Counted from the stretch's first letter, positions 1 through 41,038 are shown. The stretch: 64,000 bases of DNA from a bacterium (GCA_043756865.1 JAYUQG010000024.1:27259-91258), one strand, 5' to 3'. Numbers and translations are program-made. The notes: generated by a model not told the origin, from the letters alone.

Positions 1-1856
1 ACATCGGCGTCTTCGGAGGTGAATCCGCCCTGCTGAAGCGTCCACAGTTTCCAGTACGCACCTTTTTGTGCAAGCAATTCTTTGTGCGTTCCATCTTCAA
101 CGATACGCCCTTGGTCGAGCACAAGAATGCGGTCCATGCGACGTATGGTCGAGAGACGATGTGCGATAACGATCGTAGTGCGGCCTTCCATCAGCCGCAT
201 GAGCGCATCCTGCACCAGCTGCTCGGAACCGGAGTCAAGGCTTGAGGTCGCCTCGTCCAAGATGAGGATGGGTGCATTTTTCAGAAATGCGCGTGCGATT
301 GCGACACGTTGCCTCTCTCCTCCCGAAAGTTTCACTCCACGCTCGCCGACCAGCGCTTCGTAATTTGCAGGGTGTTCCATGATGAAGTCATGGCAGTGCG
401 CAAGTGCTGCGGCGGACAACACATCGCTGTCGGTTGCGCCCAGCTTCCCGTAGCGAATGTTTTCCATGAGTGTGCGGTGGAAAAGCACGGGGTCTTGTGG
501 AACATTGGAGATTGCACGTTTCAGGCTTGTGCGTGTCACTTCTCGGATATCGCGTCCGTCAATGTGCACGCTCCCTTCGCGCGGGTCGAATACTCGTGTG
601 AGTAGTTTGACCAATGTGGATTTGCCGGCACCTGAGGGTCCGACGAGCGCAACGCGCTCTCCCGGCCGAATGGTGACCGATACATTGTTTACCACGTATT
701 TGCCCGCATGCTGAAAGGTGACACCTTTCAGCATGATTTCGCCTCGCACGTCCGTGAGCTTGCTTGCGCTCGCGCTGTCGGTGATTTCATGGGGACGGTT
801 CATTGCCTCGGACATTTCCTTCGCATCGGCGAAACTTTCATAAATATCGCGGACGACTTGTCCAAAGGACCACACACGGTCGGTAATCTGAAATACATAT
901 GCATGGATGAGCATGAACATACCAAGCGGAAATTCGCCGCGCAGCCAGAACGCAATACCGAGTGCAAATATGCCATATTTGATGAATACGATGCTCAGTT
1001 CTTGAACACCGTGAAACAGCGAACCGGCATTCCACATAAACGCAGTGACATGCATTTGGTGTCGTGTCAGTGCCGCATGCGATTCTTTCTCGATGTCATG
1101 CGTGGCATGCGCTTCGATTGCCGCATGATTGGTAAACATATCCGCGGTCTTGCCGGTGACTTGTGAGTCAAGCTCCGCACGATAGATGTTGTAACGCAGC
1201 ATCCATTTCGAGAACCAGTAGTTCAGGAGAATCACTGCAATCACCCATGCAATCATCGCTCCTGCCAATGTCGGACTTTCCTTCATCAGCACGATGACGA
1301 CGCCAAGCAGGGTCACTATGGTCGGAAGAATGTGAAAGATGACACTGTCTGCAAGTCTGTCGTATGACCGTGCAAAGCGGTTGAGCTTCTGCACGAGCGA
1401 CCCGACAAAAACAGACTGGTAGTAGTGCTCCGAATGCTCAATAACGTGATTGAATGCGCGGATGCGCAGGTCAATCATTATTTGCTTCGTGAAGACAACA
1501 AGGAAGAGCAATCCTACCCGCCGCGCCACCACTGCCAGCACATCAAAGATGAGTATGACAGCGATTGCGCGGAGCAATATCTCTCCCGCTCCACCTGCAG
1601 AAAGTCCCTCCGCTAAGACATTGAAAAAATCTTTGTAATACGTTGGGATGATGACCGCAAGGATATTTCCCGCTGTCGTGAGGAGCACAATTAGTACTCC
1701 GAGCGGCCAGAACTTTTTGACGGACACAGCATAGAGGCTGAGTACCGGGAGAACGTTGAGTTCAAGCTTGTTGCGTAGTGGTGCGACGATGTCGGCCGCA
1801 CCCAGTATTCGACGCAGTGCGCGGTCGAGCCAGCTACCCTGTGTGTGCTCTCGCAT
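1..1856 (-). CDS. ABC transporter permease/ATP-binding protein (MsbA-like exporter); C-terminal few residues run off window start
   Basis: Minus-strand translation gives N-terminal 6-TM region then Walker A GPSGAGKST, ABC signature LSGGERQRVAIARA, Walker B ILILDEATSSLD, H-loop AHRLSTI. ATG at 1856 is preceded by a GGAGG ribosome-binding site. Not in the ORF track because it has no in-window stop. Confidence 0.85.
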   Translation of the reverse strand, partial: MREHTQGSWLDRALRRILGAADIVAPLRNKLELNVLPVLSLYAVSVKKFWPLGVLIVLLTTAGNILAVIIPTYYKDFFNVLAEGLSAGGAGEILLRAIAVILIFDVLAVVARRVGLLFLVVFTKQIMIDLRIRAFNHVIEHSEHYYQSVFVGSLVQKLNRFARSYDRLADSVIFHILPTIVTLLGVVIVLMKESPTLAGAMIAWVIAVILLNYWFSKWMLRYNIYRAELDSQVTGKTADMFTNHAAIEAHATHDIEKESHAALTRHQMHVTAFMWNAGSLFHGVQELSIVFIKYGIFALGIAFWLRGEFPLGMFMLIHAYVFQITDRVWSFGQVVRDIYESFADAKEMSEAMNRPHEITDSASASKLTDVRGEIMLKGVTFQHAGKYVVNNVSVTIRPGERVALVGPSGAGKSTLVKLLTRVFDPREGSVHIDGRDIREVTRTSLKRAISNVPQDPVLFHRTLMENIRYGKLGATDSDVLSAAALAHCHDFIMEHPANYEALVGERGVKLSGGERQRVAIARAFLKNAPILILDEATSSLDSGSEQLVQDALMRLMEGRTTIVIAHRLSTIRRMDRILVLDQGRIVEDGTHKELLAQKGAYWKLWTLQQGGFTSEDAD

Positions 1857-2293
1857 GATAACCTCCGAATGTGAAAGAACGTAAAAGAACGATTTTTTCT
1901 ATCGTGAACGAGTAATCACACAGTGCTGTGTAAATACTGCTTCACGAGAGGTTAGTCGAACAAAAACCACCTTGGCTTCTGTTCGGCCAAGGGTTTTCTC
2001 GATTTAACTCCTTAGGAGAGTGAAGAGAAATACCACGGCCGAGCACAAGACTGTGCGGGTACGACGGAAAGTGCTCCAGCAGTACGTGCTGGGGTAAAAG
2101 TTCCATTGTGGAATATCTGCTTCATAGTGGGTTTGATTCTACCCATATTATCCGATTCGTCAAGACTTCGCGCATTTTCATTATCGCCCAACTTAACCTG
2201 CAAAGAATACTGTATGTAAACACATGATGATGAGTTGACGATGCCTTACTAATTACGTAGGTTCAAGATAGACGTTGCATAAAGGAGTGACAG

Positions 2294-3175
2294 ATGGAAT
2301 ACGAGGGCGATCTCTCGCTTCTGAATCTCCTTGCGCGAGGAGAAAGACGCATTGGTGCGCTTGGGTTGTCAGGTGGAAACGCAGGCGCAGAAGGTTGCGC
2401 ACAGGCGTGCGCATTTGAAACTCGTGGACTCACGCGATTTACAGTGATAGGTGCGATTTCGTCTTTTGCGGGGGCTGCGCTCTATTTTACCGCAGGTGTA
2501 CTGAATGATGGCGCAAGCTGTTACTGGGAAGAGTGCTCAACCAATAGTTTCATCAGTTTCAGTCCGCGTCGATTTGCACAAGGGACTAGTGCTGATGTGG
2601 GCTTCCTTACCGAAGACGTATTCCGCAAAGAAGTTAACGTCGCTGCAGTACGTGCATTTCCCGGTGACTTTGTCGTGGGTGTCACGGACTGGGAGACCGG
2701 TACAGGTGAATTGGTCGATGTAAAGTCCGCCGAACCCGACCCATTTATGGCAGTTCGTGCAAGTATGGCGATGCCTGCGCTGTATCGCATTCCTGTGTAC
2801 GTAAATGGGAGACGAAAATACGACGGCGCTGTCGGCATACCTTTTCCTGCTGTTGAGATTATCAACCGATGGAACTTGGATGGACTCGTTGTGTTTGCAA
2901 ACCATCCGAAGGTGTGGAAACCAAAAGGTATTGCCCGCGCAGCAGAAACCGTCAGCTCTTTGGGAATGTCTTCTTTGCGACGTAATGCGTTTCTTGGTCG
3001 TGTTCGCGCATATCATGAAGGTTTGCGACGCTTGCGCGAAAGCAAAACACCATATCTCATTCTTTGGGGTAGCGGGGAAATAACCACATTTACGAGAAAT
3101 CCGAGAACTATCGAAGCCGTAGCACGTAGGGCATACGACGACACCATGAAGCTGTTTGCGCACGCAGGGGTTTGA
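2294..3175 (+). CDS. patatin-like phospholipase domain protein (divergent; Gly-rich oxyanion loop not evident)
   Basis: GLSGG matches the GxSxG nucleophile elbow near the N-terminus. YDGAVGIPFPAV matches the patatin DG[AG] catalytic Asp region. AAAGGAG ribosome-binding site 6 nt upstream of the ATG. Confidence 0.4.
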   Translation: MEYEGDLSLLNLLARGERRIGALGLSGGNAGAEGCAQACAFETRGLTRFTVIGAISSFAGAALYFTAGVLNDGASCYWEECSTNSFISFSPRRFAQGTSADVGFLTEDVFRKEVNVAAVRAFPGDFVVGVTDWETGTGELVDVKSAEPDPFMAVRASMAMPALYRIPVYVNGRRKYDGAVGIPFPAVEIINRWNLDGLVVFANHPKVWKPKGIARAAETVSSLGMSSLRRNAFLGRVRAYHEGLRRLRESKTPYLILWGSGEITTFTRNPRTIEAVARRAYDDTMKLFAHAGV

Positions 3176-3223
3176 TACCCTTGCGTTTTTATATATGTAA
3201 TTACACATCAAATAAAAAAGCCA

Positions 3224-3247
3224 AACAAAAACCGCACATGGTGCGGT
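3224..3247 (-). terminator. rho-independent terminator for the ADP-ribosylglycohydrolase gene
   Basis: Hairpin ACCGCAC-atg-GTGCGGT followed on the minus strand by TTTTTGTTTGGCTTTTTT. Confidence 0.55.
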
Positions 3248-3261
3248 TGGTTCAATACCTT

Positions 3262-4281
3262 TTATTTTTCGAACAAGCGAACAAGTGCTTCTGCAATTTT
3301 CCCTGCTACTGCGTATTCGGGGCGAAAGTTCGCCCATTCTGTGGGAATCCCACTCATGCCAACGCGTGCCCCAATCAGCGAACCCACGATTGCGGCGTTG
3401 GTATCGGTGTCGCCTCCTGCATTCACTGCTTCGGTAACTCCGCCCGCGAAGTCATCCATGTGTCGCAGGAATGTGCCGATGACGAATGGCATGGTCTGCG
3501 TACATACAAACCGTGAGCCGAACTTGTCGAGCAGGCGTTCCTTCGAGTCGGTATACCCTGCAATCTCTTGGAGTGTGTTTGCGAGTGTGCGATTCGCGGG
3601 ATTCGGAACGCAGAATGCTTCGAATTGTCGCACCTTGTGGGAAATGTCGATGAGTGTGAATGTCAGCTCGTCACGCGTCCGGTGTGCGTTTGCGAACACA
3701 TCGACAATGACCATTCCGACGGCAAATGCAGTAATCCATGCGCGGGCGTCACTGTGCGTGATGGCACCAAGCTCGCGCACGTGCTTGCCGAAGAGTTTCC
3801 AATTAAACGGAGTGTCGCATCCCTGCTTCTTCCACATGAGTGCGTGGAACAGCGCAAGTGGTGCGATTTTCATGATGATGCCGTTCCCGAGCCCGACCCC
3901 TGTTTTGTGTGGGGGCGGAAACATTCCGCTGCGCTTGCCATTGATGATGTCTTGAATCGCAGCAACGGAACCCTTGCCCCAGCCGAAGGTCGAGTTTTTG
4001 AGGGCTTCCATGTGAAGCGCTACGCAGAGACGTCTGTCCCAGCCGTTTGCTCTGATGAGCGACTCCGCGACAACTTTGGTCAAATCCCAGTCATCGCTCG
4101 TGTCGCCAGCCTTCATTCCCTTTGTGTCATCATTGCGCCACTGCACAGGGTCAAGAAATGTGGTGACTCCAAGCGGCCCCAGTATCCCGATAATTTCACT
4201 GTGTGTCATCGTTTCAACAGGAACGCCACGTGCGTCGCCGAGTGCAACTCCCAAGAGGGATGCATGTACTTTTTCCAGCAT
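3262..4281 (-). CDS. ADP-ribosylglycohydrolase family protein (DraG/ARH-like)
   Basis: N-terminal GVALGDARGVPVE and C-terminal AGGDTDTNAAIVGSLIGA are the hallmark motifs of the ADP-ribosylglycohydrolase family. Confidence 0.75.
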   Translation of the reverse strand: MLEKVHASLLGVALGDARGVPVETMTHSEIIGILGPLGVTTFLDPVQWRNDDTKGMKAGDTSDDWDLTKVVAESLIRANGWDRRLCVALHMEALKNSTFGWGKGSVAAIQDIINGKRSGMFPPPHKTGVGLGNGIIMKIAPLALFHALMWKKQGCDTPFNWKLFGKHVRELGAITHSDARAWITAFAVGMVIVDVFANAHRTRDELTFTLIDISHKVRQFEAFCVPNPANRTLANTLQEIAGYTDSKERLLDKFGSRFVCTQTMPFVIGTFLRHMDDFAGGVTEAVNAGGDTDTNAAIVGSLIGARVGMSGIPTEWANFRPEYAVAGKIAEALVRLFEK

Positions 4282-4334
4282 GATTGCTCCTTTGCAAATC
4301 TGCTATCGGTATACAGCGTAGTGCGTTTGCTGTC

Positions 4335-4357
4335 AAAAAACCGCACACATGGTGCGG
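4335..4357 (-). terminator. rho-independent terminator
   Basis: CCGCAC-acat-GTGCGG hairpin with a T-run on the minus strand. Nearly the same hairpin sequence as at 3230. Confidence 0.5.
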
Positions 4358-4359
4358 CG

Positions 4360-5145
4360 CTATTTTTGATTTCCGATTCTCCGTTCACGCAGTGCAGTCA
4401 CTGCATACAAACACGCAATTCCCGCAGCGATATGCTTGAGGCTATGCCCACTCAATAATTCTCCCGAAAGTTGATAAAGTGATTCGTCGAAATACTCAAA
4501 CACCTTTGCTCCGCCATACCAGAGGATTGTGAGCGTCCAGTTTCGTGACCAGCCTTCTTTGCGGGGGAAAAGGAGTGCGGTTGTCGGAATGATGAAAATC
4601 GGAAAGAACTGCATCAGCACATATGGACGCAGGTCGTCTGCACCGAGCTGTGTAGTCCATTGCCAGTACCACACTGATGCGATACCGAAGATTGCGACAA
4701 TCGGTAGCACTATTCTCGCACCACGCGCACTGATGTGCATTGCAACAAACTCCGCAAAGATAGCAGCAAAGCAGATGGTCATGGGAAGTCTGTCCCACAC
4801 CAAGCTCGCGCTGGATGGGAACGCGTGATAAAATGCCGACCCCGCCGCGGTGCCGACACACCCGATTGCAAAGACGAGCAGTGCGGCCCTGCCGTCAGCG
4901 GGCAACTTTGCTCGAGAGAGCCCGCCAAACACGAAGAGTCCCGCATATCCAGCCATCAAAAAAAAGATGTTTGTAGTGACGTTAAAAAAATTGGGAATTC
5001 CCCAAATTGTCCGTACGTCCGCAAAATGATGATAGTCCGTAGGTTGGCTGATACGTCCGTATGCCAAGAGCCCTAGCGTGGTGACGAGGAGTGAGACGGC
5101 GACAAACAGCAATATTTTTCTTTCTCGTGTCATAGTGTGTTCCAT
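4360..5145 (-). CDS. alkaline ceramidase-like 7-TM membrane hydrolase family protein
   Basis: Multi-TM protein with an HxxxH motif (HSLKH) near the C-terminus, as in the ceramidase/PAQR-like family. The ORF-track start at 5190 is a TTG. The first ATG (MEHTMTRERK) is at 5145. Confidence 0.4.
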   Translation of the reverse strand: MEHTMTRERKILLFVAVSLLVTTLGLLAYGRISQPTDYHHFADVRTIWGIPNFFNVTTNIFFLMAGYAGLFVFGGLSRAKLPADGRAALLVFAIGCVGTAAGSAFYHAFPSSASLVWDRLPMTICFAAIFAEFVAMHISARGARIVLPIVAIFGIASVWYWQWTTQLGADDLRPYVLMQFFPIFIIPTTALLFPRKEGWSRNWTLTILWYGGAKVFEYFDESLYQLSGELLSGHSLKHIAAGIACLYAVTALRERRIGNQK

Positions 5146-5220
5146 GCAAGAGTCTCTTATTAAAATGCCTCGGAGTGTGCGTTTAGTCAATGTAATAAAA
5201 AACCACCGCAGTGGTTTTGT

Positions 5221-5682
5221 TCAAGCGAGTACCGCTTCATCGTTTCTGGAGCAGGCGAGGATCATTTCGCGTGCCACATTTTTCCCGACGATGCGGTAAC
5301 GGATACCCTCCTTTGTGTCGTGTTCACGCAGGGGATACACATCGTCGACACGGCAAATTTCGTTTTGGGAGATCACAAAGAGAGCATGTAGCATGACGTA
5401 GTCTTGCCCTGGAGCGTCTTCGCTCGCTCCGAGACCTGAGTAGTCAGGAAGGAGGTTACGCAAAAATCGGCGGAACGCATTCTCCTCGTGGAGCACGATG
5501 AAGAGCTGCTTGGGAGAGAGCACCTCTGCAAGCGCAGTCATGTTCTCGGTTGTCAGGTTACCCCAGCCGATCCATTCGCCACGTTCGTTGTACCACCCAG
5601 ACCCCTTGGTGCAGGGGACAAACTGTTTGGGTCGTTGGCCGATGCAAAGACCAACGCTCGTCATGGTGTCAGGTGTCATCAA
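5221..5682 (-). CDS. hypothetical protein (divergent from lexA)
   Basis: 153-aa ORF with balanced composition and a terminator hairpin (CCACTGCGGTGG plus T-run) downstream at 5192-5215. No recognisable motif. Confidence 0.4.
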   Translation of the reverse strand: MMTPDTMTSVGLCIGQRPKQFVPCTKGSGWYNERGEWIGWGNLTTENMTALAEVLSPKQLFIVLHEENAFRRFLRNLLPDYSGLGASEDAPGQDYVMLHALFVISQNEICRVDDVYPLREHDTKEGIRYRIVGKNVAREMILACSRNDEAVLA

Positions 5683-5808
5683 TGTTCCTTGTTGAATTGT
5701 TGAACGGAGGAAGCCAAGTGTACTCTAGAATATTATACAAAAATGTCAAGTTAAGTGATGACCTAACGGTATGGCACACAAATGTCCTGTGGAAAACTCG
5801 TTTGCGAG

Positions 5809-6542: not shown

Positions 6543-7415
6543 CTAGAATGCCATAAGTGCCACTCCAGTAATCATTATGCTGCATGCTACTGAACGTCGC
6601 AGCAGGTGTTTGTCGTGGAAAAGTTCTCCTCCGATGACGGTCGTAAAGAGGGAAGAAGATCGCTTTGTTGCGACGACGAGTCCAACCGCAGCGAGCGCCA
6701 CCGCTTCCGCGTAAGCAACGCGCGATACGATAGCAAGGACCGAAATAATCACAAACGGTTTCCATGAAACTCGTAGAATGGGAATAAAACTCATGAGTGG
6801 CTTCTTCTTGTATAAAGAAAGCAGTATAAAGTTGAGGAGAATGAACATGTGCAGTAAGCCGACAAACAACACAGGGGGGATATGCCATGTACCAAATACG
6901 AGCCGCTCGGCAACCGAGGTGAGCGAATAAAGAAACATTGCGAAAATAATTAGCCGTGCATAGTGTTCGCCCGCAATGTGCCGAAAAAAGCTGCGCACAT
7001 CACGTAGTCTGTCTGTTTCCAGCACGTAGGTTCCTACTGCGAGTAGTGCCATTCCACACAGTTGAAGTGGACTGAGCCGCTCGTCGAGAAAAAGGAAGGC
7101 AAATGTAGCGGTCATAAAAGGGCTGAGCAGGAAAAGCGGTGCCGAGGCGCTTATTTCCATGTGGCGCACACCCTTTGTTACTTCGATGAATGCAATCGTT
7201 GAAGCAATAGAAATCAGGTAACCCGTGAGCAGTACTTTTCCTGTCAGTACTTCGAGGGGGAAAAAGAAAAAGACGGGAACACTCACAATTGCCACCACTA
7301 CTGCGAGTGTGTACGCGAAGTCGATCGAATGCGTTTTAACGAGGGTCCGTTTTTCGATAATCGAGCCCAGTGATATGCAAAACGCCGCAATCACTGCATA
7401 GAAAAACCATGTCAT
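6543..7415 (-). CDS. EamA/DMT family transporter
   Basis: About 10 predicted TM helices in two repeated halves, typical of the drug/metabolite transporter superfamily. Confidence 0.55.
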   Translation of the reverse strand: MTWFFYAVIAAFCISLGSIIEKRTLVKTHSIDFAYTLAVVVAIVSVPVFFFFPLEVLTGKVLLTGYLISIASTIAFIEVTKGVRHMEISASAPLFLLSPFMTATFAFLFLDERLSPLQLCGMALLAVGTYVLETDRLRDVRSFFRHIAGEHYARLIIFAMFLYSLTSVAERLVFGTWHIPPVLFVGLLHMFILLNFILLSLYKKKPLMSFIPILRVSWKPFVIISVLAIVSRVAYAEAVALAAVGLVVATKRSSSLFTTVIGGELFHDKHLLRRSVACSIMITGVALMAF

Positions 7416-7500
7416 ATGGCAATTCTAGCATACACATTGCTATAAATACGTTACGCCAATTGCGTGTACGCGCCATAAAATTGCACAATAAGATAGCGTA

Positions 7501-7536
7501 AAAAACACACCCCGAATGTGGGGTGTGTTTTTTGTT
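7501..7536 (-). terminator. rho-independent (bidirectional-type) terminator
   Basis: AAAAACACACCCC-gaatgt-GGGGTGTGTTTTTT perfect 9-bp stem. A second hairpin AGCCGCAAC-aat-GTTGCGGCT plus T-run lies at 7606-7632 on the minus strand. Confidence 0.6.
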
Positions 7537-7642
7537 ATTGGGGTTTTTGTGTCATGGGTGACCCATGCTGTAATCTCTATATGGTCTGCGGCGTGCTACA
7601 TGAGTCATAAAAAAGCCGCAACAATGTTGCGGCTGTGCATGT

Positions 7643-8605
7643 TTACCGGATGCTATCTTTCGGTTGCAGATTCGGTTGAGTTTTGGGGCTTCCTGTGGGA
7701 AGAGCGGTTCCGTCCGGAGATTGCCACGGAAATACATTGAGTGACGGGTCTGCATATTCTGCATAGGGGGCAAGGTTGAGTGCTTCGATGTCGCGCGGCA
7801 CCATTGTCCAGTCGTATGCAAACATCGGGTTATGTGCGTTGCCCAGACGGTCGAAGATGCGTACTTCAAACGAGAGTCTTACCCATGTGCGGTAGACGCG
7901 CTCCGTCGCTTTGTCACCGCGATGTACGCTGTAGCAATCCATAAGTGTGAGCTCAAAAGGTGCCGAGCGCCATTCATGAGCACTGTTTGTTTCGGCAACC
8001 TGTCGGTTAAAGTCCCAGAAATAGTCGTGCTTTGCCGGGTCAAGGTGCTCCACCGCAAACGGTTGCACGTAGTAAACAGTCGGAATGAGGTCACCCACAG
8101 TGTAGGTGTGGTTCCCGCGTACCTTTGGACTCCATCGTTCACCCTGGAATCCATCGACGTGACATGGCGCTTCGCGTTGGAGTTCGCCTGCGTCGACCCA
8201 GCCGTGTTCGACAGTGAGATAACAGTAGTACTCGTCGTAGCAGGTAGGATTCACAGCGAGTTCGTAGTCTGCTACGCGTCGTATGACGGGAAGAAACTGC
8301 GTAAACTCTTTCGGGACGCGAAAGTGTGAGCCTGGGAATTTAATCGGCATATCCAGTACGCGTGGAGCAATACCCTGTGTGCGAAAAAGCGCTTGTTCTG
8401 TTTCGGGCAGTACTCCAAGTGAAACGGGAGTACGGGGAATTGCGAACTCTGCTTCGTCCCACACTCGATTTAAAGCACGGATAATGGGTGAGTCAGCGGG
8501 AATCGTTGTCGGTATATGCATTGGGGTTACCTCAAATCCCTCACGACTGACGTTCGGTATGATGAAGTGTTTTCCGCGATACTCAAGTTGTGCAGCTTTT
8601 TTCAT
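7643..8605 (-). CDS. hypothetical protein, possible Fe(II)/2-oxoglutarate-dependent oxygenase fold
   Basis: The spacing of CHVDGF (HxD), then VHRG (distal His), then RLS (RxS) is compatible with the 2OG-oxygenase facial triad. Otherwise uncharacterised. Confidence 0.3.
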   Translation of the reverse strand: MKKAAQLEYRGKHFIIPNVSREGFEVTPMHIPTTIPADSPIIRALNRVWDEAEFAIPRTPVSLGVLPETEQALFRTQGIAPRVLDMPIKFPGSHFRVPKEFTQFLPVIRRVADYELAVNPTCYDEYYCYLTVEHGWVDAGELQREAPCHVDGFQGERWSPKVRGNHTYTVGDLIPTVYYVQPFAVEHLDPAKHDYFWDFNRQVAETNSAHEWRSAPFELTLMDCYSVHRGDKATERVYRTWVRLSFEVRIFDRLGNAHNPMFAYDWTMVPRDIEALNLAPYAEYADPSLNVFPWQSPDGTALPTGSPKTQPNLQPKDSIR

Positions 8606-8614
8606 GATGTGTCC

Positions 8615-9571
8615 TTAGCTAATGAGGTGTAACAGGTCAACGTTGTGCGCTCCAATCGTACCGTTTACAAACGGTTCACGGTCGAATCGGATTGCATCGA
8701 CGAAGTCGGCAAGTTCAGCGTGATAAGGATCAACTGGTAGAAAATGGAGTGGCGTACCGTTTACTGCGATGCTGCCTTTGCCGTGAGCACCCAGAGTATC
8801 TGCGCATGTGCTGTGTCCCTGTGTCCCGTGAATTTCAATCACACGGGGGAGTATGGTGCGGTTTGATACCGCAATCGTCGCGCTTTTTCCAGTTTTCCAA
8901 TCGAGATGGATTGTTGCGGTATGTTCGAGCATGCCTACGTCGCTCTCACGAATCACATTGATTTCAGGTGCTCCTGTTTCTCCAAGAAACCAAGTTGCAA
9001 GGTCGAGGGCGTGAGTGCCTACGGCTGCAAGTACGAACCAGCGTGCCAACGTGTCACTACTTCGCCAGTCATCAGGTGGAGCACGGTATGACCACGTCAG
9101 TTTGATGTGCTGTGGCGTGCCGATTGCTCCCTGCCCTATTGCCTCACAGAGTTTACGATGCCCATCATGGTGTCGTAGGTGGTATCCGACCGCAAGCCTC
9201 ACCTTGTGTATTCGCGCTGCGTCACACATACGTAGGGCATCCTCGGGATTTGTCGCCATCGGCTTTTCGACAAAAATGTGTTTTCCCGCATGTGCGGCTT
9301 CGATGGACATAGCTGCATGTAGTTTGTCAGGTGTTGCAATGATGACCGCATCAAGTTCCGCATCTGCGAGCATGTCGGAGTAGGAAGAGTAAATCTTTTT
9401 TGCCCGGAATTGCTTGGCAAGCAGTTCTGCGCGCTTTGGGTCGCGACTGACAAGACCTTCTAATGTTGCATGTGGCACTGAAAGTAATGCGGGGAGGAGC
9501 CGCATAGTGGCTACCTCCCCGACACCGACAATGCCAACTTTTATGTGGGCTTCACGATGTGTGTTAGTCAT
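8615..9571 (-). CDS. Gfo/Idh/MocA family NAD(P)-dependent oxidoreductase
   Basis: Rossmann motif VGIVGVGEVA, then EKP in HIFVEKPMA, typical of the Gfo/Idh/MocA family. The ORF extends to 9697, but the first sensible ATG (MTNTHREAHIKVGIVG) is at 9571. That start avoids overlap with the upstream NUDIX gene. Confidence 0.7.
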   Translation of the reverse strand: MTNTHREAHIKVGIVGVGEVATMRLLPALLSVPHATLEGLVSRDPKRAELLAKQFRAKKIYSSYSDMLADAELDAVIIATPDKLHAAMSIEAAHAGKHIFVEKPMATNPEDALRMCDAARIHKVRLAVGYHLRHHDGHRKLCEAIGQGAIGTPQHIKLTWSYRAPPDDWRSSDTLARWFVLAAVGTHALDLATWFLGETGAPEINVIRESDVGMLEHTATIHLDWKTGKSATIAVSNRTILPRVIEIHGTQGHSTCADTLGAHGKGSIAVNGTPLHFLPVDPYHAELADFVDAIRFDREPFVNGTIGAHNVDLLHLIS

Positions 9572-15243: not shown

Positions 15244-15268
15244 AAACCGCGATTTTTCGCGGTTTTTT
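15244..15268 (+). terminator. rho-independent terminator after the Mqo-like gene
   Basis: AAACCGCGA-tttt-TCGCGGTTT followed by TTTTT. A second, minus-strand terminator AACCAC-ctgt-GTGGTT lies at 15281-15306 and serves the cassette gene that ends at 15343. Confidence 0.6.
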
Positions 15269-15342
15269 ATAATTCTCAATATAAAAACAACCACCTGTGT
15301 GGTTGTTGGTTTTCCCGTCGCTAAAGAGGGGATAAAAGAAAC

Positions 15343-15564
15343 TCAGGAGCCGCGTGGGCGTTCGGTGACACGCACCTTGGCTCCCTCGGAGAGGACGGTG
15401 TCGGCGGTTGCCGGCTGTCCGTCGACGGTAACGTTCAGGCTCTTCAGGTCGAGCTTCAGGTGTGCTGCAGCCGCGCCGAGGGTGGTTGTGGGGGGCACTT
15501 CGACGTTTTTGCCGCGCTCTTTCTTGTCACTATTCAGTGGAACTTTTGTCAGGTGAATTTGCAT
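15343..15564 (-). CDS. ubiquitin-like beta-grasp protein (ThiS/MoaD-like), C-terminus RPRGS
   Basis: About 73 aa starting MQIHL, with the ThiS/MoaD pattern ...LNVTVDGQPATADTVLSEGAKVRVTERPRGS. It ends Arg-Gly-Ser rather than Gly-Gly. A GGAG ribosome-binding site precedes it. Its ATG lies 1 nt after the upstream gene's TGA. Confidence 0.6.
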   Translation of the reverse strand: MQIHLTKVPLNSDKKERGKNVEVPPTTTLGAAAAHLKLDLKSLNVTVDGQPATADTVLSEGAKVRVTERPRGS

Positions 15565-15565
15565 T

Positions 15566-16225
15566 TCAATCTCCAGTGGTTGGGTAGATGGTGATTTCTC
15601 CGCCGCACAGCCTTTCAACGTGCCAGTCTTTTCTACCACGCTTCCAAAAACTTCTCAATATGTATGCAGCTTCTGCAGCTACAACAGTCGAGACGTCGAT
15701 GATGCTATGGAGTCCGCACATTTGGGGGGCAGCTTCCGGGGTCGAGTAACTTAGGTAGTGTTCGTAATACGCGATCTCCTTTGTGTTGCAGGGTGAGATG
15801 GAAAAGACTTGCCAGAATTCCTCGGCGACACGCGTATCGATAAGTACATCGATGAGCGGATTTTTTTTCACCTTCTGCCAGATGAGCTGGCGTGCCTCCA
15901 TGGTATCGACGCAGGCAATAACTGTACGCTTCAAGGGTTCACCTTCGTAGCGTCTGCGCTGCACATTGAGTGAAATGCCCGTGTCGCGTAGGATGATTGC
16001 AGCGAGTGCGTCTACTTTGTAGAGCCCGAAGTCTCCTTCTCCGTAGAGTGACGGTGCGATGTTGTGTGACTCGACACTGTCGTGGTCGTAGACCGTGATA
16101 TCCGTAACACCCATACGTACGAGCATCGAAACGACATGACTTCCGACGGAACCCGCGCCGATGACGGTGACGGGCTTGATATCTTCATCAGGAAGGTAGT
16201 ACTTCTGCTGAGAGAGATTTAACAT
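15566..16225 (-). CDS. E1-like adenylyltransferase, ThiF/MoeB/HesA family (minimal, about 220 aa)
   Basis: VTVIGAGSVGSHVVSMLVRMGVTDITVYDHDSVESHNI is the E1 GxGxxG nucleotide-binding fold plus the D..D...SNL motif. Start taken at 16225 (MLNLSQQ), whose ATG overlaps the upstream stop (GTATGTTAA). Confidence 0.7.
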   Translation of the reverse strand: MLNLSQQKYYLPDEDIKPVTVIGAGSVGSHVVSMLVRMGVTDITVYDHDSVESHNIAPSLYGEGDFGLYKVDALAAIILRDTGISLNVQRRRYEGEPLKRTVIACVDTMEARQLIWQKVKKNPLIDVLIDTRVAEEFWQVFSISPCNTKEIAYYEHYLSYSTPEAAPQMCGLHSIIDVSTVVAAEAAYILRSFWKRGRKDWHVERLCGGEITIYPTTGD

Positions 16226-17670
16226 ACGACTGCCTCCGCGGTTTGTTCCATTTGGACTGTTGGCCATTCTTCGATTTTGTTGTAGAGGATGAGCTCGGGC
16301 GTGTAGCCCTCGGTCAGCCACCGCAAGATGTACTCGATGGCATCTGCATATCGATACTCCGCAACTGCTTCAGTGATGGGGTCGCCAACGTTTCCAAAGC
16401 AGTGTCCTGCCCACGGACTGATGTGTGGATGGGGAACTCCTTTTGGGTGGAATGCCTCTTCGCACCAGATGGTGATATGTGGGTCAATGCCCAAGCAAAT
16501 ACCAAACGTACCAATCTTGTACGTCACTCCACCATCGAGGATGGTGATGAGTTTTGTTTTCACCTCAAACCCGTAGTTGGGAATAATGATGGCACGAGCA
16601 ACGAGCGGGTGTAGCAAAATTGCTTCTGTATCTGCAACCAGATTATCCATCAGTGTTTGCTGATAGTGGACGTCTCCAAATAGGACTTTGTGCGTTTTGT
16701 GTTGCACCACAAGGTTGCGACGTTGTGCCAACAAATCTTCCTGTAGCTTAGCGATCGTTGTGACCGTCTTGGCAATCCGTGCTTCATGTGCGGTTACTTG
16801 AAGTTTTAGGAAGGCCGCACACTCGGTTTGCAGTGTTTGGCTCGAAAACGGTATCTCTATAGCGACTGCCTCATTGCCGTCGAGCCAAAATTGTAGCCCA
16901 AGGACAACAGCTTTGCTGAAGAGTTTGAGCAAGGTCGCGTCGCCGAGCTCCCACATGAGATACGGATTGTGCAGTATGTAGATGTTGTTTCCGATTACCT
17001 GCACAACGTCGTGGTCTCCGTCGGTGAGTGCGACGCCACGTCTTGGGGCACTTTTTAGCTGCGGCCAAACGAGACCTTTCGCTTCGACACTTAGCCCGAA
17101 GAGCGTATCCGGATGCGTCATCTGCGGGATGCCTGAAGGCAACGTATAGATAAACACATGGAGTTCGTCATCTTTGCACCGAATCGGTTCGTAAAAACCG
17201 GAGGGTGAAGGGTCGTGGAGAGTGAATCCGATACCGCCGACTACTTCCGCCATGATGCGAAGGTATTCGACAAAGATTGGCTGGAGCATGTGTTGCGAAC
17301 GGTCGAGCTTTTCGTCCGAGCGTGTTCCCGGTACAGGTGGCGCCATCACTGAAGTTCCCGGCTTGATGCAGATGAAGTCGAAGACGGTACCGCCAACACG
17401 ACACTCCAGTCCCTCACCGGGAGTAACAAGTTCTTCCACAACGTGTTTGATATACGGATGCGAGAAGAGCACTACTGGCAATGTCAGCTCTTCAGTGCCG
17501 ATCTGCACTGTCGCAGTAAAAATTTCGGTGCTTTGTACTGCGTCGAGCATTGTCAGTTCTGCTCGATGTACCGCGTGAGCAGCAAAAATCGGTCCTTCAA
17601 AGAGTGCAGTCGCCTGAGCAAGTTCATGGGCAGTGACATGCTTCTTTTGTGGTGTGAGATCAGGGGACAT
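16219..17670 (-). CDS. uncharacterised 483-aa protein co-operonic with E1-like and Ubl genes
   Basis: Long ORF with good composition. C-terminal region contains GTFGICLGI (E2-like GxICL context) and PHPHISP, and the protein ends ...AVVC. No confident domain assignment. Confidence 0.5.
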   Translation of the reverse strand: MSPDLTPQKKHVTAHELAQATALFEGPIFAAHAVHRAELTMLDAVQSTEIFTATVQIGTEELTLPVVLFSHPYIKHVVEELVTPGEGLECRVGGTVFDFICIKPGTSVMAPPVPGTRSDEKLDRSQHMLQPIFVEYLRIMAEVVGGIGFTLHDPSPSGFYEPIRCKDDELHVFIYTLPSGIPQMTHPDTLFGLSVEAKGLVWPQLKSAPRRGVALTDGDHDVVQVIGNNIYILHNPYLMWELGDATLLKLFSKAVVLGLQFWLDGNEAVAIEIPFSSQTLQTECAAFLKLQVTAHEARIAKTVTTIAKLQEDLLAQRRNLVVQHKTHKVLFGDVHYQQTLMDNLVADTEAILLHPLVARAIIIPNYGFEVKTKLITILDGGVTYKIGTFGICLGIDPHITIWCEEAFHPKGVPHPHISPWAGHCFGNVGDPITEAVAEYRYADAIEYILRWLTEGYTPELILYNKIEEWPTVQMEQTAEAVVC

Positions 17671-17780: not shown

Positions 17781-18974
17781 ATGGATTTGCAACACAAAGA
17801 CTTCCGTACATTGTTCCAGACACTTGTCATGTTTATTTCGCTTGTGACATACCCGCATACTGCATTTGCGGTACTTCCTCCAGATATTTTGTTTTCTGTG
17901 GGAGCCAGCCTCTGGCAAATTCTCGCCATGGTGGGTGTATTTGTGACTGGAGCAGCGATGTCGGTGCTGCCATTTCTCAAGGGTGTGTTTACGGGGGATC
18001 GTAACTGGAGGGTCATTTCGCTCTGCGTGGGACTCACATTGCTTGCGGGTACAGGACTGCTCGCATTTCTCTCAAGGCCCAATGCGACCCCCACACCACA
18101 GCCGTCTGTGTCCACTGGAACTTCTGCATCCCTGGGATATCGTTTCTTCGCTGATCGGTTTGTTATACACGGAACGCGTAAGGATGGTACCCCTCTTCTG
18201 GTTGATTTGGTGATCAATAGAAAAGAGGCCACTCCAGGAGTATTTGCACACTACTATATGGCGCAAATTATTGATGGCGAAGCAACCGCAAAAGACTATT
18301 TTACTAGGGATGCTGCATCGCATGAGGTCCTTCCCGACCTCCTTTTCACGCGATTTGTGCGACATGCTACGTCGAGTGAACCTTCACGCGAGTGGCAGGG
18401 GTTCTCATTTTACATGCTCGGGAAGCAATATGCGGTAAGCTCGGGCCCCATGGACGGGGATTTTGTGGTGCGTAACGTTCCTGAATACAGTGAGTATTCG
18501 AGTGCGGGGTCTGGAATCGTATCCGAGGAGGGGGAGCAGGTTCCTGTTTCTATTTATCACGAACGTGTTTACTCTACTGACTATCGTCCACTTATCTTCT
18601 TTGAAGGCTCCGTAACACTCCGTTCAGAGACCGTGCAACTCGTACTATGGGATGCACTTGGAAACTTTTATCTTATTGACCGCTCGCTCGTCCCCGAGCC
18701 TTCCCCTGTTTATGCTTCTCATTTTTGGGCGTTATACAAAGACACAATGGGATATGTCAAAAAGGGATTTGTGGGTGAGGCATCAATGCAGCGCGACGGA
18801 GAAACAGTTAAATTCTTTAGCACGGTCCCTGCATTTGCAGATGCGCAGGTTGGGGTGACGCTCAAAACAAAGTTTAAGGATGATTTCGACAAAGGGTACG
18901 TTGAAGGTCAGATTGCTGACAGCGCAGGAGTGCGAAAAATTTCTGGGCAAGGCTACTTTAATATCTATGAATAA
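17781..18974 (+). CDS. hypothetical membrane-anchored protein
   Basis: N-terminal TM helices, then a roughly 300-aa soluble domain. The ORF-track start at 17739 is TTG, and the first ATG is 17781. The 3' end overlaps the start of the next gene by 8 nt. Confidence 0.45.
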   Translation: MDLQHKDFRTLFQTLVMFISLVTYPHTAFAVLPPDILFSVGASLWQILAMVGVFVTGAAMSVLPFLKGVFTGDRNWRVISLCVGLTLLAGTGLLAFLSRPNATPTPQPSVSTGTSASLGYRFFADRFVIHGTRKDGTPLLVDLVINRKEATPGVFAHYYMAQIIDGEATAKDYFTRDAASHEVLPDLLFTRFVRHATSSEPSREWQGFSFYMLGKQYAVSSGPMDGDFVVRNVPEYSEYSSAGSGIVSEEGEQVPVSIYHERVYSTDYRPLIFFEGSVTLRSETVQLVLWDALGNFYLIDRSLVPEPSPVYASHFWALYKDTMGYVKKGFVGEASMQRDGETVKFFSTVPAFADAQVGVTLKTKFKDDFDKGYVEGQIADSAGVRKISGQGYFNIYE

Positions 18975-26158: not shown

Positions 26159-27193
26159 TCACGACTTCACGCCGCGAATGGGTTTCATGCCCGAGGTGCT
26201 GCGACCAAACGCGGCAACTCGGATACGTTGGAATTCTTCGGTGATGTTTCTCTTGTTCCAGTTCGGACGTCTCATGACGTCGCGCACGATGAGCGAGCGT
26301 ATGAAGTCGCACATGGCGTCGGGTACTGTTGATGGTACTTCTTTGCGCACCACGGTCTCAATGCCGCCCCCCAAAAGAAACAGCATGGTCATGCCGAGAC
26401 TGTAGAAGTCGGTCTCGGGAATGAGCGGTTTTCCTTGAAGCTGTTCTTGCGGAGAAAAATGCTCGGTATATCCATCGGCTTGCGTGTCTCGGTCCGGCTT
26501 CACTTGCGAGAGTCCGAAGTCGACGAGACAAACGGTGTGGTCTGTCTCCTGCACGATGATGTTCTGCGGCTTGATGTCGCCGTGCACCACTCCGTTGTAG
26601 TGCAGATAGTGCAGTGCATTCAAGAGCCGCTCCGTAATCCATGCAACTGATTCTGCATCGAGTCGCCCTTTTTCTTCAACGATGTCGAAGAGATTTTTGC
26701 CCGGAATGTAGCTCATCACGAGAAAGTAGCGACCGTCGTCGGTGCGCACCAGCTCGCGTACTGCGGGGAGTGCAAAGTGTCGCAAGTCCCACAGCAGTTT
26801 TGTCTCACGCAAGAGGATAGCTTGAATATTCGCCTCGGGCCATGCGCAGTCTTTGATGCAGACAGGCAGTCCCGTGACAACATGTTCTGCAAGATAGGTT
26901 CTTCCAAACCCGCCTGCGGCAATCTTGCTTTTCACGCGATAAGCTCCCACGAGCTTGCCGCTGACACCTTCGCCTCGACGATACTTGTCGTATTGTTGAC
27001 GCAGTGCGTCGTCCCCAATCACGTTATAGGCCTCGTTGATCTCCTGTGACGTCCGCACGGTGCTTCCGTGGTCAGGATGCTTCAGGCTCATGAGTGCTTT
27101 CCACGCCGCTTTTATCACGGCAGGGTCGGCGGTCGGATGAACCTGAAGCCGCGCATAGAGGTCATGCTCGAACGCGGATAGTACTGGCTTCAT
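26159..27193 (-). CDS. J-domain (DnaJ-like) fused to Ser/Thr protein kinase
   Basis: N-terminal DLYARLQVHPTADPAVIKAAWKALMSLKHPDHG...EINEAYNVIGDDALRQQYD is a J-domain with its HPD motif. The kinase domain has AAGGFGRTY (Gly loop), VCIK, HGDIKPQNI (catalytic loop) and DFGLS. Confidence 0.7.
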   Translation of the reverse strand: MKPVLSAFEHDLYARLQVHPTADPAVIKAAWKALMSLKHPDHGSTVRTSQEINEAYNVIGDDALRQQYDKYRRGEGVSGKLVGAYRVKSKIAAGGFGRTYLAEHVVTGLPVCIKDCAWPEANIQAILLRETKLLWDLRHFALPAVRELVRTDDGRYFLVMSYIPGKNLFDIVEEKGRLDAESVAWITERLLNALHYLHYNGVVHGDIKPQNIIVQETDHTVCLVDFGLSQVKPDRDTQADGYTEHFSPQEQLQGKPLIPETDFYSLGMTMLFLLGGGIETVVRKEVPSTVPDAMCDFIRSLIVRDVMRRPNWNKRNITEEFQRIRVAAFGRSTSGMKPIRGVKS

Positions 27194-32751: not shown

Positions 32752-32813
32752 CCATCTCCACAATTATAAAAAGAACGCCCGTATGGGCGTTCTTTTTATA
32801 ATTGTGGAGATGG
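32752..32813. repeat. 29-bp perfect inverted repeat (hairpin, loop GTAT) overlapping the tmRNA 3' end; core acts as bidirectional terminator
   Basis: CCATCTCCACAATTATAAAAAGAACGCCC-gtat-GGGCGTTCTTTTTATAATTGTGGAGATGG. The right arm contains the tmRNA acceptor 3' strand. The inner GAACGCCC/GGGCGTTC stem is flanked by A- and T-runs. Confidence 0.7.
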
Positions 32814-33190
32814 CGGGTTTGACCCCGCGTCCAGCAGAGAAGAGCACAAAGGTCTACGTGCGTAGTTTGTCTCATTGATTTCATGTCGCAAGGGCTAGGC
32901 AAACAAAACCTTACGAGCACTACTCCCTTAATTTTCGTTATCGTATTCGGGTACTACGATACTTATCCTGAAAATATGACACGAAGTACGGGCCTATCAG
33001 GCGTACTCCCGCTTCGCGCCGTCTACTTAAGCGTAGGCGAAAGCGAAATTGTTAGCCTTAAAGTAAGGCGTTGCAACTCCACCGGTGCTTTTCTTGGCAC
33101 TTTCAAGTTGTTCGCGTGATTTACGAGACTACGAACATGCTCGGCACGCACATTGCACAGCAACTTCCACTGTCGAAACAGTTCATCCCC
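32805..33190 (-). ncRNA. ssrA: tmRNA (ssrA), one-piece
   Basis: Minus-strand 5' end GGGGATGAACTGTTTCGACAGTGG...GTGCGTGCCGAG resembles the tmRNA 5' consensus. The tag reading frame is GCTAACAATTTCGCTTTCGCCTACGCTTAA (ANNFAFAYA-stop, at 33027-33056). The 3' end is a T-arm GCGGG-GTCAAAC-CCCGC plus acceptor CATCTCC-A. That acceptor pairs with 5' GGGGATG and gives a G3:U70 pair. It lies immediately downstream of smpB. Confidence 0.8.
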
Positions 33191-40965: not shown

Positions 40966-41038
40966 CCACCCGTAGCTCAGTTGGTAGAGCGGTCGTCTTA
41001 TACACGACTGGTCCCTGGTTCGAGTCCAGGCGGGTGGA
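40966..41038 (+). tRNA. tRNA-Ile with anticodon UAU (decodes AUA)
   Basis: Cloverleaf: acceptor CCACCCG/CGGGTGG, D-arm GCTC-AGTTGGTA-GAGC, anticodon arm GTCGT-CTTATAC-ACGAC (positions 34-36 are TAT), T-arm CCTGG-TTCGAGT-CCAGG, discriminator A, 73 nt. No encoded CCA. Confidence 0.75.

Follow-up and report, generated by a model that had tools for sequence, protein, structure and literature searches.

The three genes at positions 15343-17670 of the 64,000-nucleotide stretch of bacterial DNA analysed here (the window) probably form a self-contained, peptidase-less ubiquitin-like conjugation module running from E1 to E2, a reading whose mechanistic steps we infer throughout. They encode, in order, a 483-aa protein (protein A) that ends in a predicted E2/UBC-like domain, a 219-aa minimal E1 and a 73-aa ubiquitin-like protein (Ubl) with a Gly-Ser end. 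Work on Cap2/CBASS, Bil and Bub has of late made Ubl conjugation in bacteria a busy area of research. To our knowledge, every characterised bacterial system either includes a peptidase or has fused enzymes. The cassette is the barest version seen so far: it has neither a DUB nor an E3, and combines a lone adenylation domain with a single E2-like domain and a single Ubl. Its hosts are genome-reduced and largely uncultured bacteria (Candidatus Lloydbacteria, Uhrbacteria), in which an outlay of 2.3 kb is notable.

Layout and conservation of the cassette

All three genes lie on the minus strand and are packed stop to start. In the ORF call, gene A (483 aa) runs from ATG to TAA at 17670..16219; gene B, for the E1, occupies 15566..16225, and gene C, for the Ubl, 15343..15564. 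Direct reading of the sequence showed that the E1 start codon (ATG 16225-16223, within GTATGTTAA) overlaps the stop codon of gene A (TAA 16221-16219), giving the junction ATGTTAA (16219..16225, minus strand). The E1 stop codon (TGA 15568-15566) is separated by 1 nt from the Ubl start codon (ATG 15564-15562) in the junction TGAaATG (15562..15568, minus strand), and the Ubl stop codon lies at 15345-15343. Homologous loci have similar gene overlaps, such as 4219/4222 in L002 and 7237/7240 in L003. Shine-Dalgarno-like purine runs are found 6-7 nt 5' of all three starts (AAGGAAA for gene A, GGAGG for the E1 and GGAG for the Ubl). The NCBI annotation takes an upstream Ubl start, which gives 91 aa; comparison with homologues supports the 73-aa start over this call.

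A hairpin scan revealed two intrinsic-terminator-like hairpins 3' of the Ubl gene (span 15244..15307), one on the minus strand at 15307-15286 and a bidirectional one at 15244-15265. On the 5' side of the cassette we found no terminator, and the intergenic region of ~110 nt is common to a divergently transcribed gene. The original prediction had described three minus-strand genes packed stop to start and flanked by their own terminators: its coordinates and junctions were confirmed, as were terminators on the 3' side, but not on the 5' side. Overlapping junctions, together with terminators at the 3' end only, make it probable that the genes share one transcript and are coupled in translation. 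Recent horizontal acquisition of the cassette in this window was rejected, as there is no GC anomaly.

The A-E1-Ubl order was kept wherever a contig reached far enough, in >20 distinct loci with overlapping or near-abutting junctions, so the triad recurs as a unit across genomes, as the original prediction required. Protein A identity among these loci goes down to about 22%, and the hosts are Candidatus Lloydbacteria, Candidatus Uhrbacteria, other MAGs and metagenomes. Measured against one locus with proteins 77-85% identical, dN/dS was 0.11 for gene A, 0.10 for the E1 and 0.16 for the Ubl, indicating that all three genes are under purifying selection. Given this selection and the same order in >20 loci, the arrangement is not due to chance. 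No neighbour outside the triad was common to the 13 loci compared, and because the neighbouring genes are housekeeping genes, the genomic context offers no functional hint. As judged from these loci, the triad is a rare, always-linked module of uncultured bacteria.

We saw no JAB or other peptidase in the triad loci, and no fourth conserved gene. A regex-level test of the ORFs of 12 cellular loci (L001-L013, two of which are the same contig) and of the 64-kb window found the JAMM motif absent. The sole exception in this test was a weak match in an unrelated 110-aa ORF of L012.

Predicted domains and candidate active sites

Protein A had no match in Pfam, NCBIfam, PADLOC or PHROGs, in keeping with the earlier statement that the largest protein has no recognisable domain, and it matched no known cofactor-biosynthesis enzyme. 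Searching Pfam with 100 members of its family (249 representatives at 50% identity) yielded scattered coiled-coil noise only. Since neither protein A nor the Ubl is in Pfam, NCBIfam, PADLOC or PHROGs, both are currently annotated as hypothetical.

The AF2 model of protein A (mean pLDDT 88.9) is divided into three parts. The N-terminal alpha/beta region (aa 1-270; 16861..17670, minus strand) is conserved, has no enzyme-like invariant residues and is presumed to be a target- or partner-binding module. The idea that this region is a hidden peptidase was rejected, since none of its Cys, His, Ser or Glu residues is conserved. Two long helices (H277-331 and H334-353) follow as a coiled-coil hairpin (aa 277-353; 16612..16842, minus strand). 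For this helical stretch a profile search of the PDB returned only coiled-coil proteins, for example apolipoprotein A-I and IF1, which we set aside as low-complexity helix matches. The C-terminal part (aa 336-475; 16246..16665, minus strand) is, by AF2 and hhalign, a predicted E2/UBC-like catalytic domain, with the N-terminal helix, four-stranded meander and subsequent helices of a UBC fold.

Alignment of protein A with the human E2 UbcH5B by hhalign (Prob 71%, E 3.7e-5) begins at aa 340, which corresponds to UbcH5B residue 2, so that the last long helix matches E2 helix alpha1; the beta-meander also aligns, HPH falls on HPN, and C424 on C85. The HPN-motif counterpart is H414-P415-H416 (codons CAT CCA CAC; 16423..16431, minus strand), set against H75-P76-N77 in UbcH5B. 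In the protein A alignment H414 is invariant and P415 and H416 are invariant or near-invariant, the Asn of HPN having become His. Cys424 (codon TGC; 16399..16401, minus strand), the predicted E2 catalytic cysteine, is present in 136/136 sequences at roughly 20% pairwise identity, and each other Cys occurs in at most 30%. The spacing from His to Cys is 10 residues in both protein A and UbcH5B. Searched at E up to 1, no curated E2 model (UQ_con, Prok-E2_A to E) was matched by the 100 family members. Together, the alignment and model argue with moderate statistical support that protein A ends in an E2/UBC-like domain with an HPH...Cys candidate active site. The E2-like Cys contexts noted originally in this protein come down to Cys424, its sole conserved Cys; the coiled coil and the C-terminal placing of the E2 domain had not been noted.

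The 219-aa E1 matched PF00899 at 63.2 bits (cut-off 28.1, E 2.7e-17) over residues 19-185, consistent with its earlier description as a ThiF/MoeB-type adenylation domain only. Its relatives in the PDB are distant (Uba5, Cap2, BubCD, MccB and ThiF, E 5e-8 to 1.6e-6), the nearest entries being 9egb and 9egc. Its nucleotide-binding loop, G23-A-G-S-V-G28 (16142..16159, minus strand), has the three invariant glycines of G-x-G-x-x-G, and D47, D49, S53-H54-N55, K70, C105-V-D107, R112 and D130-T-R132 are also invariant among 13 cellular E1s. The features of adenylation are thus present (GxGxxG, the acidic residues D47/D49 of a DxD, K70 and the Mg-site residue D107), with SHNxxPS in place of the canonical SNLxRQ and its arginine. 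The E1 has none of the Zn-binding CxxC pairs seen in ThiF and MoeB. Cys170 (codon TGC; 15716..15718, minus strand), in a C-G-x-H motif that is invariant in the 13 cellular E1s, is the candidate thioester cysteine, and its counterpart is also kept in viral E1 relatives. It lies just before the last adenylation-domain helix and presumably corresponds to ThiF C184 and MoeB C187. The E1 missed the cut-offs of the NCBIfam equivalogs (ThiF PRK08644, 52 against 159 bits; TIGR02356, 51.7 against 275; MoeB, 21.3 against 266) and matched the PADLOC 'E1-E2' (Cap2-type) models in part, at E 1e-13 over residues 17-84, about 65 residues around the nucleotide-binding motif.

The beta-grasp pattern noted earlier in the smallest protein was reproduced by its AF2 model, built with database homologues (pLDDT 85.3; strand-strand-helix-strand-strand). 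Foldseek matched this model at prob 1.00 to Caldiarchaeum ubiquitin (the best match), SUMO, NEDD8 and SAMP1 (E 2e-4 for archaeal ubiquitin, SUMO, NEDD8 and SAMP1) and to Mth1743. Pfam matches were weak (TGS, ThiS-like, SAMP2), and some members of the family (47 clusters of homologues) have precomputed SAMP2 or Ub-Mut7C matches. On the modelled fold, the 73-aa protein is a beta-grasp ubiquitin-like protein. It ends in a flexible tail, E68-R-P-R-G-S73-COOH (15346..15363, minus strand), that parallels the L-R-L-R-G-G of ubiquitin position by position. Across the 47 clusters G72 and S73 never vary, and E68, R69 and P70 are near-invariant (ERPxGS); the same tail is found in the triad loci with two exceptions, ..KSS and ..QGG. 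The Ubl ends in Gly-Ser, not Gly-Gly, and has no linked peptidase. We know of no precedent for a terminal Ser among E1-activated Ubls, and this residue might block adenylation unless removed. The conserved Gly-Ser C terminus had also escaped the original prediction.

Conjugation model, alternatives and viral relatives

In the model that we favour, the minimal E1, probably a homodimer by analogy with ThiF and Uba5, would bind the 73-aa Ubl and adenylate its C-terminal carboxylate with ATP. On the most economical reading Ser73 itself would be the activated residue, the Ubl being made mature with no processing. The acyl group would then pass, possibly via Cys170 of the E1, to Cys424 of the E2/UBC-like domain, which would place the Ubl onto a target lysine. 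The N-terminal ~270 aa of protein A, joined by the coiled coil, would select that target, and therefore no separate E3 would be needed. If Ser is the conjugated residue, the range of E1-activated termini widens, and trypsin would leave a Lys-epsilon-Gly-Ser remnant (+144.05 Da). The role could lie in conflict or defence, or the module could tag proteins of its hosts, small-genome bacteria of the candidate phyla radiation.

An invariant terminal Ser, unusual for a Ubl, would also suit a chemistry that does not conjugate, in which the activated Ser reacts within the protein or with a small molecule (by nucleotide attachment as in MccB, by amidation or by esterification) and protein A is a scaffold or second enzyme. 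Of the E1 relatives with solved structures, MccB is one of the nearest (E about 1e-6), and a deconjugating peptidase is absent. We nevertheless regard this as unlikely: the E1 would act on a folded beta-grasp protein of 73 aa and not on a short leader-core peptide, the E1 itself (219 aa in all) lacks the N-terminal peptide clamp of MccB, and exporter or immunity genes are not linked. The tail variants ..KSS and ..QGG keep only small residues in the last two positions, which suits a tail threading into an E1 pocket, and thioester transfer is the best explanation for the invariant HPH...Cys in a UBC-like fold. The same motif bears on a non-catalytic complex, in which the C-terminal domain of protein A would be an RWD/UEV-like binding domain and the E1 would only bind, or only adenylate, the Ubl. 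RWD and UEV domains have no catalytic Cys. The moderate E2-homology statistics are compatible with such a complex, but the invariance of both Cys424 and His414 across the 136 divergent sequences, in alignment with the E2 active site, and the retention in the E1 of all residues needed for adenylation make it quite improbable.

The original prediction had left conjugation or defence and sulfur-carrier biosynthesis side by side. As a sulfur carrier, the Ubl would form a C-terminal thiocarboxylate and donate sulfur to a cofactor, tRNA or metabolite, as in ThiS/ThiF, MoaD/MoeB and TtuB/TtuC, with protein A as a relay or acceptor enzyme. Such a role would fit an E1 that is a ThiF-type adenylation domain only, with ThiF equivalogs among its partial NCBIfam matches; one Ubl homologue is labelled 'sulfur carrier protein ThiS' by JGI, and the ThiS/MoaD-like Mth1743 is among the best TM-scores of the Ubl model. 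However, the ThiF and MoeB equivalog scores fall far under their cut-offs, the Zn-binding CxxC pairs are missing, the tail is Gly-Ser and not Gly-Gly, protein A has an E2-like active site and no cofactor-enzyme match, and no rhodanese, cysteine desulfurase, ThiG, MoaE, TtuA or other conserved partner was present at any examined locus. We therefore consider the sulfur carrier very unlikely and favour conjugation.

Relatives of the favoured conjugation module were found in viruses. On two IMG/VR contigs (L025 and L026), an E1 of the same clade lies downstream of a protein with a homologous coiled coil and HPH...C(F/L)GN domain (3e-19 for L026 and 3.5e-6 for L025), with an extra gene between the E2-like gene and the E1. 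The inserted viral gene matched Prok-JAB weakly in L024, L026 (E 6e-4) and L031, and small beta-grasp-like ORFs lie close by on L025 and L026. By its predicted products, the gene set of L025 and L026 is that of a conjugation/deconjugation system. Phages of the crAss-like group and Flavobacterium FpV4 carry a block of ThiF and metalloprotease genes, and in the crAss-like phages the inserted gene has a canonical JAMM motif; the GenBank label of the crAss-like E1, 'thiamine biosynthesis protein', is a mislabel. Viral and phage E1s belong to the same clade at 27-38% identity and keep the Cys throughout, and a DxDxVESHN motif is common to the IMG/VR E1s. In contrast to the ERPxGS end of the cassette Ubl, candidate viral Ubls either finish with a Gly and 1-4 variable residues after it or have long extensions, and the viral E2-like proteins have N-terminal regions unlike that of protein A. 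Protein A itself was not found by an IMG/VR pattern scan or by tblastn of GenBank phages, the relatives being reached via the E1 only. We do not claim E2 homology for 390-435-aa proteins of crAss-like phages, which gave a motif match only (hhalign Prob 4%). Phage relatives with a JAB-like gene were absent from the original prediction.

The link to phage cassettes suggests that phage-host biology includes a broader clade of Ubl systems that is still uncharted. We put forward only tentatively the fuller proposal that the cassette is a resident tagging or conflict system of CPR bacteria, sister to the JAB-containing phage Ubl cassettes, with DUB-free conjugation via a C-terminal serine (ERPxGS) in place of glycine and a canonical-looking HP(H)-Cys E2 that has its own fused module for target recognition.

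Comparison with known systems

An open-access literature search found no description of this triad family. The cassette lacks the features that define ThiS/ThiF, MoaD/MoeB, Bil, Bub, Cap2/CBASS, 6A-MBL and PRTRC; the original prediction had said as much for the ThiS/ThiF, MoaD/MoeB, Bil and CBASS sets. The Bil operons (Type I, '6d', and Type II, '6c/CEHH') are antiphage operons with a cysteine cascade, in which the E2 is believed to pick its own target (PMC10557695; 10.1101/2024.11.21.623953). Like the cassette, BilABCD encodes its Ubl, E2 and E1 as separate proteins of one operon and has no E3. Bil, however, always includes the JAB peptidase BilC, which trims after a conserved Gly, whereas the cassette has no peptidase and a fixed Gly-Ser tail. 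In Bil the E1 is large, with IAD, AAD and CYS domains and a Zn site, whereas the cassette E1 consists of one adenylation domain of 219 aa. An HPN-type His is missing from the Bil E2; the cassette E2 domain has its HPH exactly 10 residues before the Cys and forms the C terminus of a 483-aa coiled-coil protein. Bub (6E/DUF6527) also combines a bacterial Ubl, E1 and E2, and its Type II typically lacks a JAB peptidase. By contrast with the three separate proteins found here, Bub fuses its E2 to the Ubl or to the E1 and has a DUF6527 serine protease, for which protein A and its homologues gave no match, and its intermediates are oxyesters (Ser), whereas both candidate catalytic residues of the cassette are invariant cysteines.

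Type II CBASS Cap2 is among the sequence and fold neighbours of the cassette proteins, but it is an E2-E1 fusion that conjugates a CD-NTase, not a Ubl, and it is accompanied by a JAB (Cap3) and CBASS effectors; no CD-NTase, JAB or CBASS effector was present among the neighbouring genes of the cassette loci examined. No PADLOC model matched the cassette beyond the partial Cap2-type 'E1-E2' matches on the E1. For 6A-MBL, an E2-E1-JAB triple module with a metallo-beta-lactamase, NF058523 reached 54.2 bits (cut-off 320) and covered residues 13-78 alone, and for PRTRC, TIGR03736 scored 42.1 against 144.75 bits, with no ParB among the neighbours. ThiS/ThiF and MoaD/MoeB likewise pair a ThiF-family E1 with a small beta-grasp protein; the cassette differs in its Gly-Ser instead of Gly-Gly end, its lack of a CxxC zinc site and its always-linked E2-like protein, and no ThiG/H, MoaE, rhodanese or IscS Pfam families were found among the called neighbours of 9 loci.

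Eukaryotic and archaeal ubiquitin cascades share with the cassette a beta-grasp modifier with an R-x-R-G-x tail, and the cassette E2 domain has the HP(N/H)-x7-Cys signature with the spacing of UbcH5B. Uba5, the minimal-E1 example (UBA5-UFC1-UFM1), resembles the cassette E1 in being an adenylation domain that has its Cys in a short loop and no separate Cys domain. Sequence similarity to these cascades is at the limit of detection, and the cassette differs from them in having no RING E3 and no Rpn11/JAB, a terminal Ser in place of Gly and an E2 fused to a large N-terminal region. The E2 domain thus keeps a eukaryote-like HPx...Cys and the Ubl tail mimics the RxRGG of ubiquitin, yet ends in Ser. 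The best reading is that the cassette, which matches no described bacterial ubiquitin-like system, is a variant of the Bil/Bub/Cap2 kind.

Gene layout and the three protein families

The three minus-strand ORFs of the original prediction were confirmed by their coordinates: gene A (17670–16219; 483 aa), the E1 gene (16225–15566; 219 aa) and the gene for the ubiquitin-like protein (Ubl; 15564–15343; 73 aa). The E1 ATG lies within GTATGTTAA and therefore overlaps the gene A TAA, and 1 nt separates the E1 TGA from the Ubl ATG. Shine–Dalgarno-like purine-rich runs precede all three start codons, and the GC content of the cassette is that of its surroundings. The cassette had also been described as flanked by its own terminators. 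This held for the 3′ side of the Ubl, where we located two terminator-like hairpins (15307–15286 on the minus strand, and 15244–15265, bidirectional), and failed for the 5′ side, where gene A shares a short, terminator-free intergenic region with a divergent gene. The NCBI record gives the Ubl as 91 aa, from an in-frame start farther upstream that overlaps the 3′ end of the E1 gene (window 15343–15639). The 73-aa start (ATG at 15564) is backed by every homologue and by the Logan gene call.

The identity of the 219-aa protein as an E1 is solid. It matched Pfam ThiF above threshold (63 bits, E = 2.7e-17) and scored far under all NCBIfam equivalog cut-offs, including those of ThiF, MoeB, PRTRC-ThiF and 6A-MBL cap2_3, and PADLOC Cap2-type models covered just its first ~65 residues. 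Its solved relatives, found with a six-sequence family profile, are all distant (Uba5, Cap2, BubCD, MccB and ThiF; E = 5e-8 to 1.6e-6). Invariant among 13 cellular orthologues are GxGxxG, DxDxxxSHN, K70, CVD107xMxxR, DTR and C170-G-x-H; C170, the candidate thioester cysteine, occupies what we take to be the position of ThiF C184 and MoeB C187. The protein has no Zn-binding CxxC pairs, no separate Cys domain and no UFD.

Assignment of the 73-aa protein as a Ubl is also solid. Its Pfam matches were all sub-threshold (TGS, ThiS-like and SAMP2), and a profile search gathered 47 clusters of homologues, a few of which carry precomputed SAMP2 or Ub-Mut7C hits. An AlphaFold2 model built on the 47-cluster alignment is a confident beta-grasp (pLDDT 85.3) that Foldseek matched to Caldiarchaeum ubiquitin, SUMO, NEDD8, SAMP1 and Mth1743 (prob 1.00). 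The tail reads ERPxGS-COOH, with Gly72-Ser73 invariant and E68-R69-P70 near-invariant; independently fetched loci have the same ending, with two exceptions (..KSS and ..QGG). Ubiquitin ends in L-R-L-R-G-G, and E-R-P-R-G-S runs parallel to this tail at each position.

Protein A has no model in Pfam, NCBIfam, PADLOC or PHROGs, and 100 members of its family gave no recurrent match in Pfam. Clustered at 50% identity, the family recovered by exhaustive phmmer has 249 representatives, with lengths of 440–550 aa in nearly all cases. The AlphaFold2 model (136-sequence alignment; mean pLDDT 88.9) comprises an alpha/beta N-terminal region (aa 1–270), two long helices (aa 277–353) and a C-terminal domain of five strands, an HPKGVPHPHIS loop, Cys424 and then helices. 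This last domain is probably an E2, with Cys424 as its predicted catalytic cysteine. In the N-terminal region, Gly, Pro, Arg, Asp, Gln and Tyr positions are conserved, and residues of catalytic type are absent among them.

Conservation and genomic context

The triad is conserved as a unit in relatives. The order A–E1–Ubl is kept wherever the contig reaches far enough, in more than 20 distinct loci (gathered by exact protein look-up, a scan with one genome per species and a metagenome scan), even where protein A identity is as low as ~22%. Sources carry the labels Candidatus Lloydbacteria (three), Candidatus Uhrbacteria, 'Patescibacteria group' or, for three MAGs, uncultured Gammaproteobacteria; further MAGs also contribute, and GC content spans 43% to 63%. 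Relative to the closest relative (77–85% amino-acid identity), dN/dS was 0.11 for A, 0.10 for E1 and 0.16 for the Ubl. On one metagenome contig (L039, 86–1408), the protein A homologue is present as two ORFs of 314 and 68 aa, a split that reflects a frameshift, a pseudogene or an assembly error.

When flanking ORFs from 13 of these loci were compared all against all, no fourth common gene emerged. The neighbours are varied housekeeping genes (among them RF-1, FtsEX, MreBCD, IF-2, ribosomal proteins, CCA-adding enzyme and RuvB); the cassette of the window lies among genes for NadA, NadC, Mqo and a PEP-utilising enzyme. We also found no JAMM motif in the ORFs of the cellular loci L001–L013 or of the window, except for one weak regex match in an unrelated ORF. 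The divergent neighbour in the window (17781–18974, plus strand) encodes 397 aa with a hydrophobic N-terminus and has no Pfam match. The closest related locus (L021) has a 398-aa gene upstream in the same orientation, also without a Pfam match, which we liken to it by size and orientation alone. Because more distant loci share no such neighbour, it is probably plain synteny and not part of the module. Elsewhere, the window contains a tmRNA gene (32802–33190, minus strand; 122 bits), tRNA genes (40966–41038, plus strand; 55439–55525, minus strand) and, in the called-gene table (L014), a 344-aa ORF with DnaJ and Ser/Thr protein kinase Pfam matches, an unusual fusion (26159–27193, minus strand).

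Related genes in phages

Searches of viral collections (IMG/VR by pattern scan, GenBank phages by tblastn) did not recover protein A itself. Nine IMG/VR contigs encode E1s (27–38% identity) that share the DxDxVESHN motif and the Cys. In two of these viral loci, the second gene upstream of the E1 encodes a protein hit by the coiled-coil and E2-domain part of the family A model (L026, 3e-19, ...AHPHSSQDGNGSVCLGN...; L025, 3.5e-6, ...GHPHIDMYGCFGN...). The gene between the E2-like protein and the E1 was scanned in four loci other than L025; in three of them (L024, L026 and L031) it showed a weak Prok-JAB match (E = 6e-4 to 3e-3). Small beta-grasp-like ORFs near the viral E1s have C termini in which a Gly is followed by one to four further residues (GGLY, GNF, GNSSF and GAN). 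Directly after the E1, five IMG/VR contigs have an ORF of 375–388 aa (L024, 6952–8118; L027, 7836–8963; L028, 6799–7932; L029, 6948–8081; L030, 6946–8079); the one copy scanned, that of L028, matches reverse transcriptase (RVT_1, E = 4.7e-21; phrog_2825, 3.6e-53), and a functional link, such as membership in a diversity-generating retroelement, is conceivable. Downstream of the L026 E1 (6602–8782) lie six paralogous ORFs of ~100 aa in a row, with ends ...D(I/V)E(A/L)(M/I)I.

The E1 also has matches in 82 GenBank phage records, which come mostly from Bacteroides crAss-like phages and FpV4-type Flavobacterium phages. There the gene is annotated 'thiamine biosynthesis protein', and in six loci its product is 29–30% identical to the window E1. 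In these six (L047, MT774387.1; L048–L051, crAss-like; L052, Flavobacterium phage FpV4), a four-gene block at locus coordinates ~800–5700 lies beside primase and UDG genes. The first gene encodes a protein whose N-terminus is beta-grasp-like and precedes a conserved K-S-G-[AG] site, the second a 390–435-aa protein with an HSH-x12-13-C-x-G motif, the third a protein bearing a canonical JAMM motif (HSHNNMQTFFSGTD) and the fourth the E1. A relation of the 390–435-aa protein to E2 is unsupported (hhalign Prob 4%). The block looks like an unannotated Ubl–(E2?)–JAB–E1 cassette.

A putative minimal cascade and known systems

The components are those expected of a minimal Ubl conjugation cascade. The E1 would adenylate the Ubl C terminus, and the acyl group would pass to Cys424 of the E2-like domain, possibly via E1 Cys170. 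The E2-like domain would then modify a target, which may be chosen by the N-terminal region of protein A itself. In Type II Bil, the residues past the conserved Gly are variable and are removed by the JAB (PMC10557695). For the cassette, we favour Ser73 itself as the putative activated residue over a removable cap, because no peptidase is present yet the terminal Ser is invariant, because the tail is in register with ubiquitin RxRGG and because Gly and Ser are the only natural replacements at the two final positions. As to what such conjugation might serve, the patchy distribution of the module and its phage relatives hint at defence or conflict, and its housekeeping genomic contexts hint at endogenous protein tagging.

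We found no published description of the cassette family in the open-access literature, an absence that is not proof. In the five operon types of Iyer et al. 2006 (PMC1779556), JAB domains accompany E1-like proteins, either within one polypeptide or encoded by a gene of their own. The original prediction that the cassette fits neither ThiS/ThiF nor MoaD/MoeB sets nor known conjugation cassettes was borne out, as the defining features of each are missing. Unlike sulfur-carrier pairs, it has no sulfur-pathway partners and no Gly-Gly. It differs from CBASS in lacking a CD-NTase, from 6A-MBL in lacking an MBL and from PRTRC in lacking ParB. In contrast to Bil, it has neither a JAB nor a multidomain E1, and in contrast to Bub, it has no fusions and no DUF6527, with a Cys in place of Bub's Ser. 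In its proposed mode of action, the cassette resembles bacterial E1/E2 systems of the Bil, Bub and Cap2 class, outside the definition of each.
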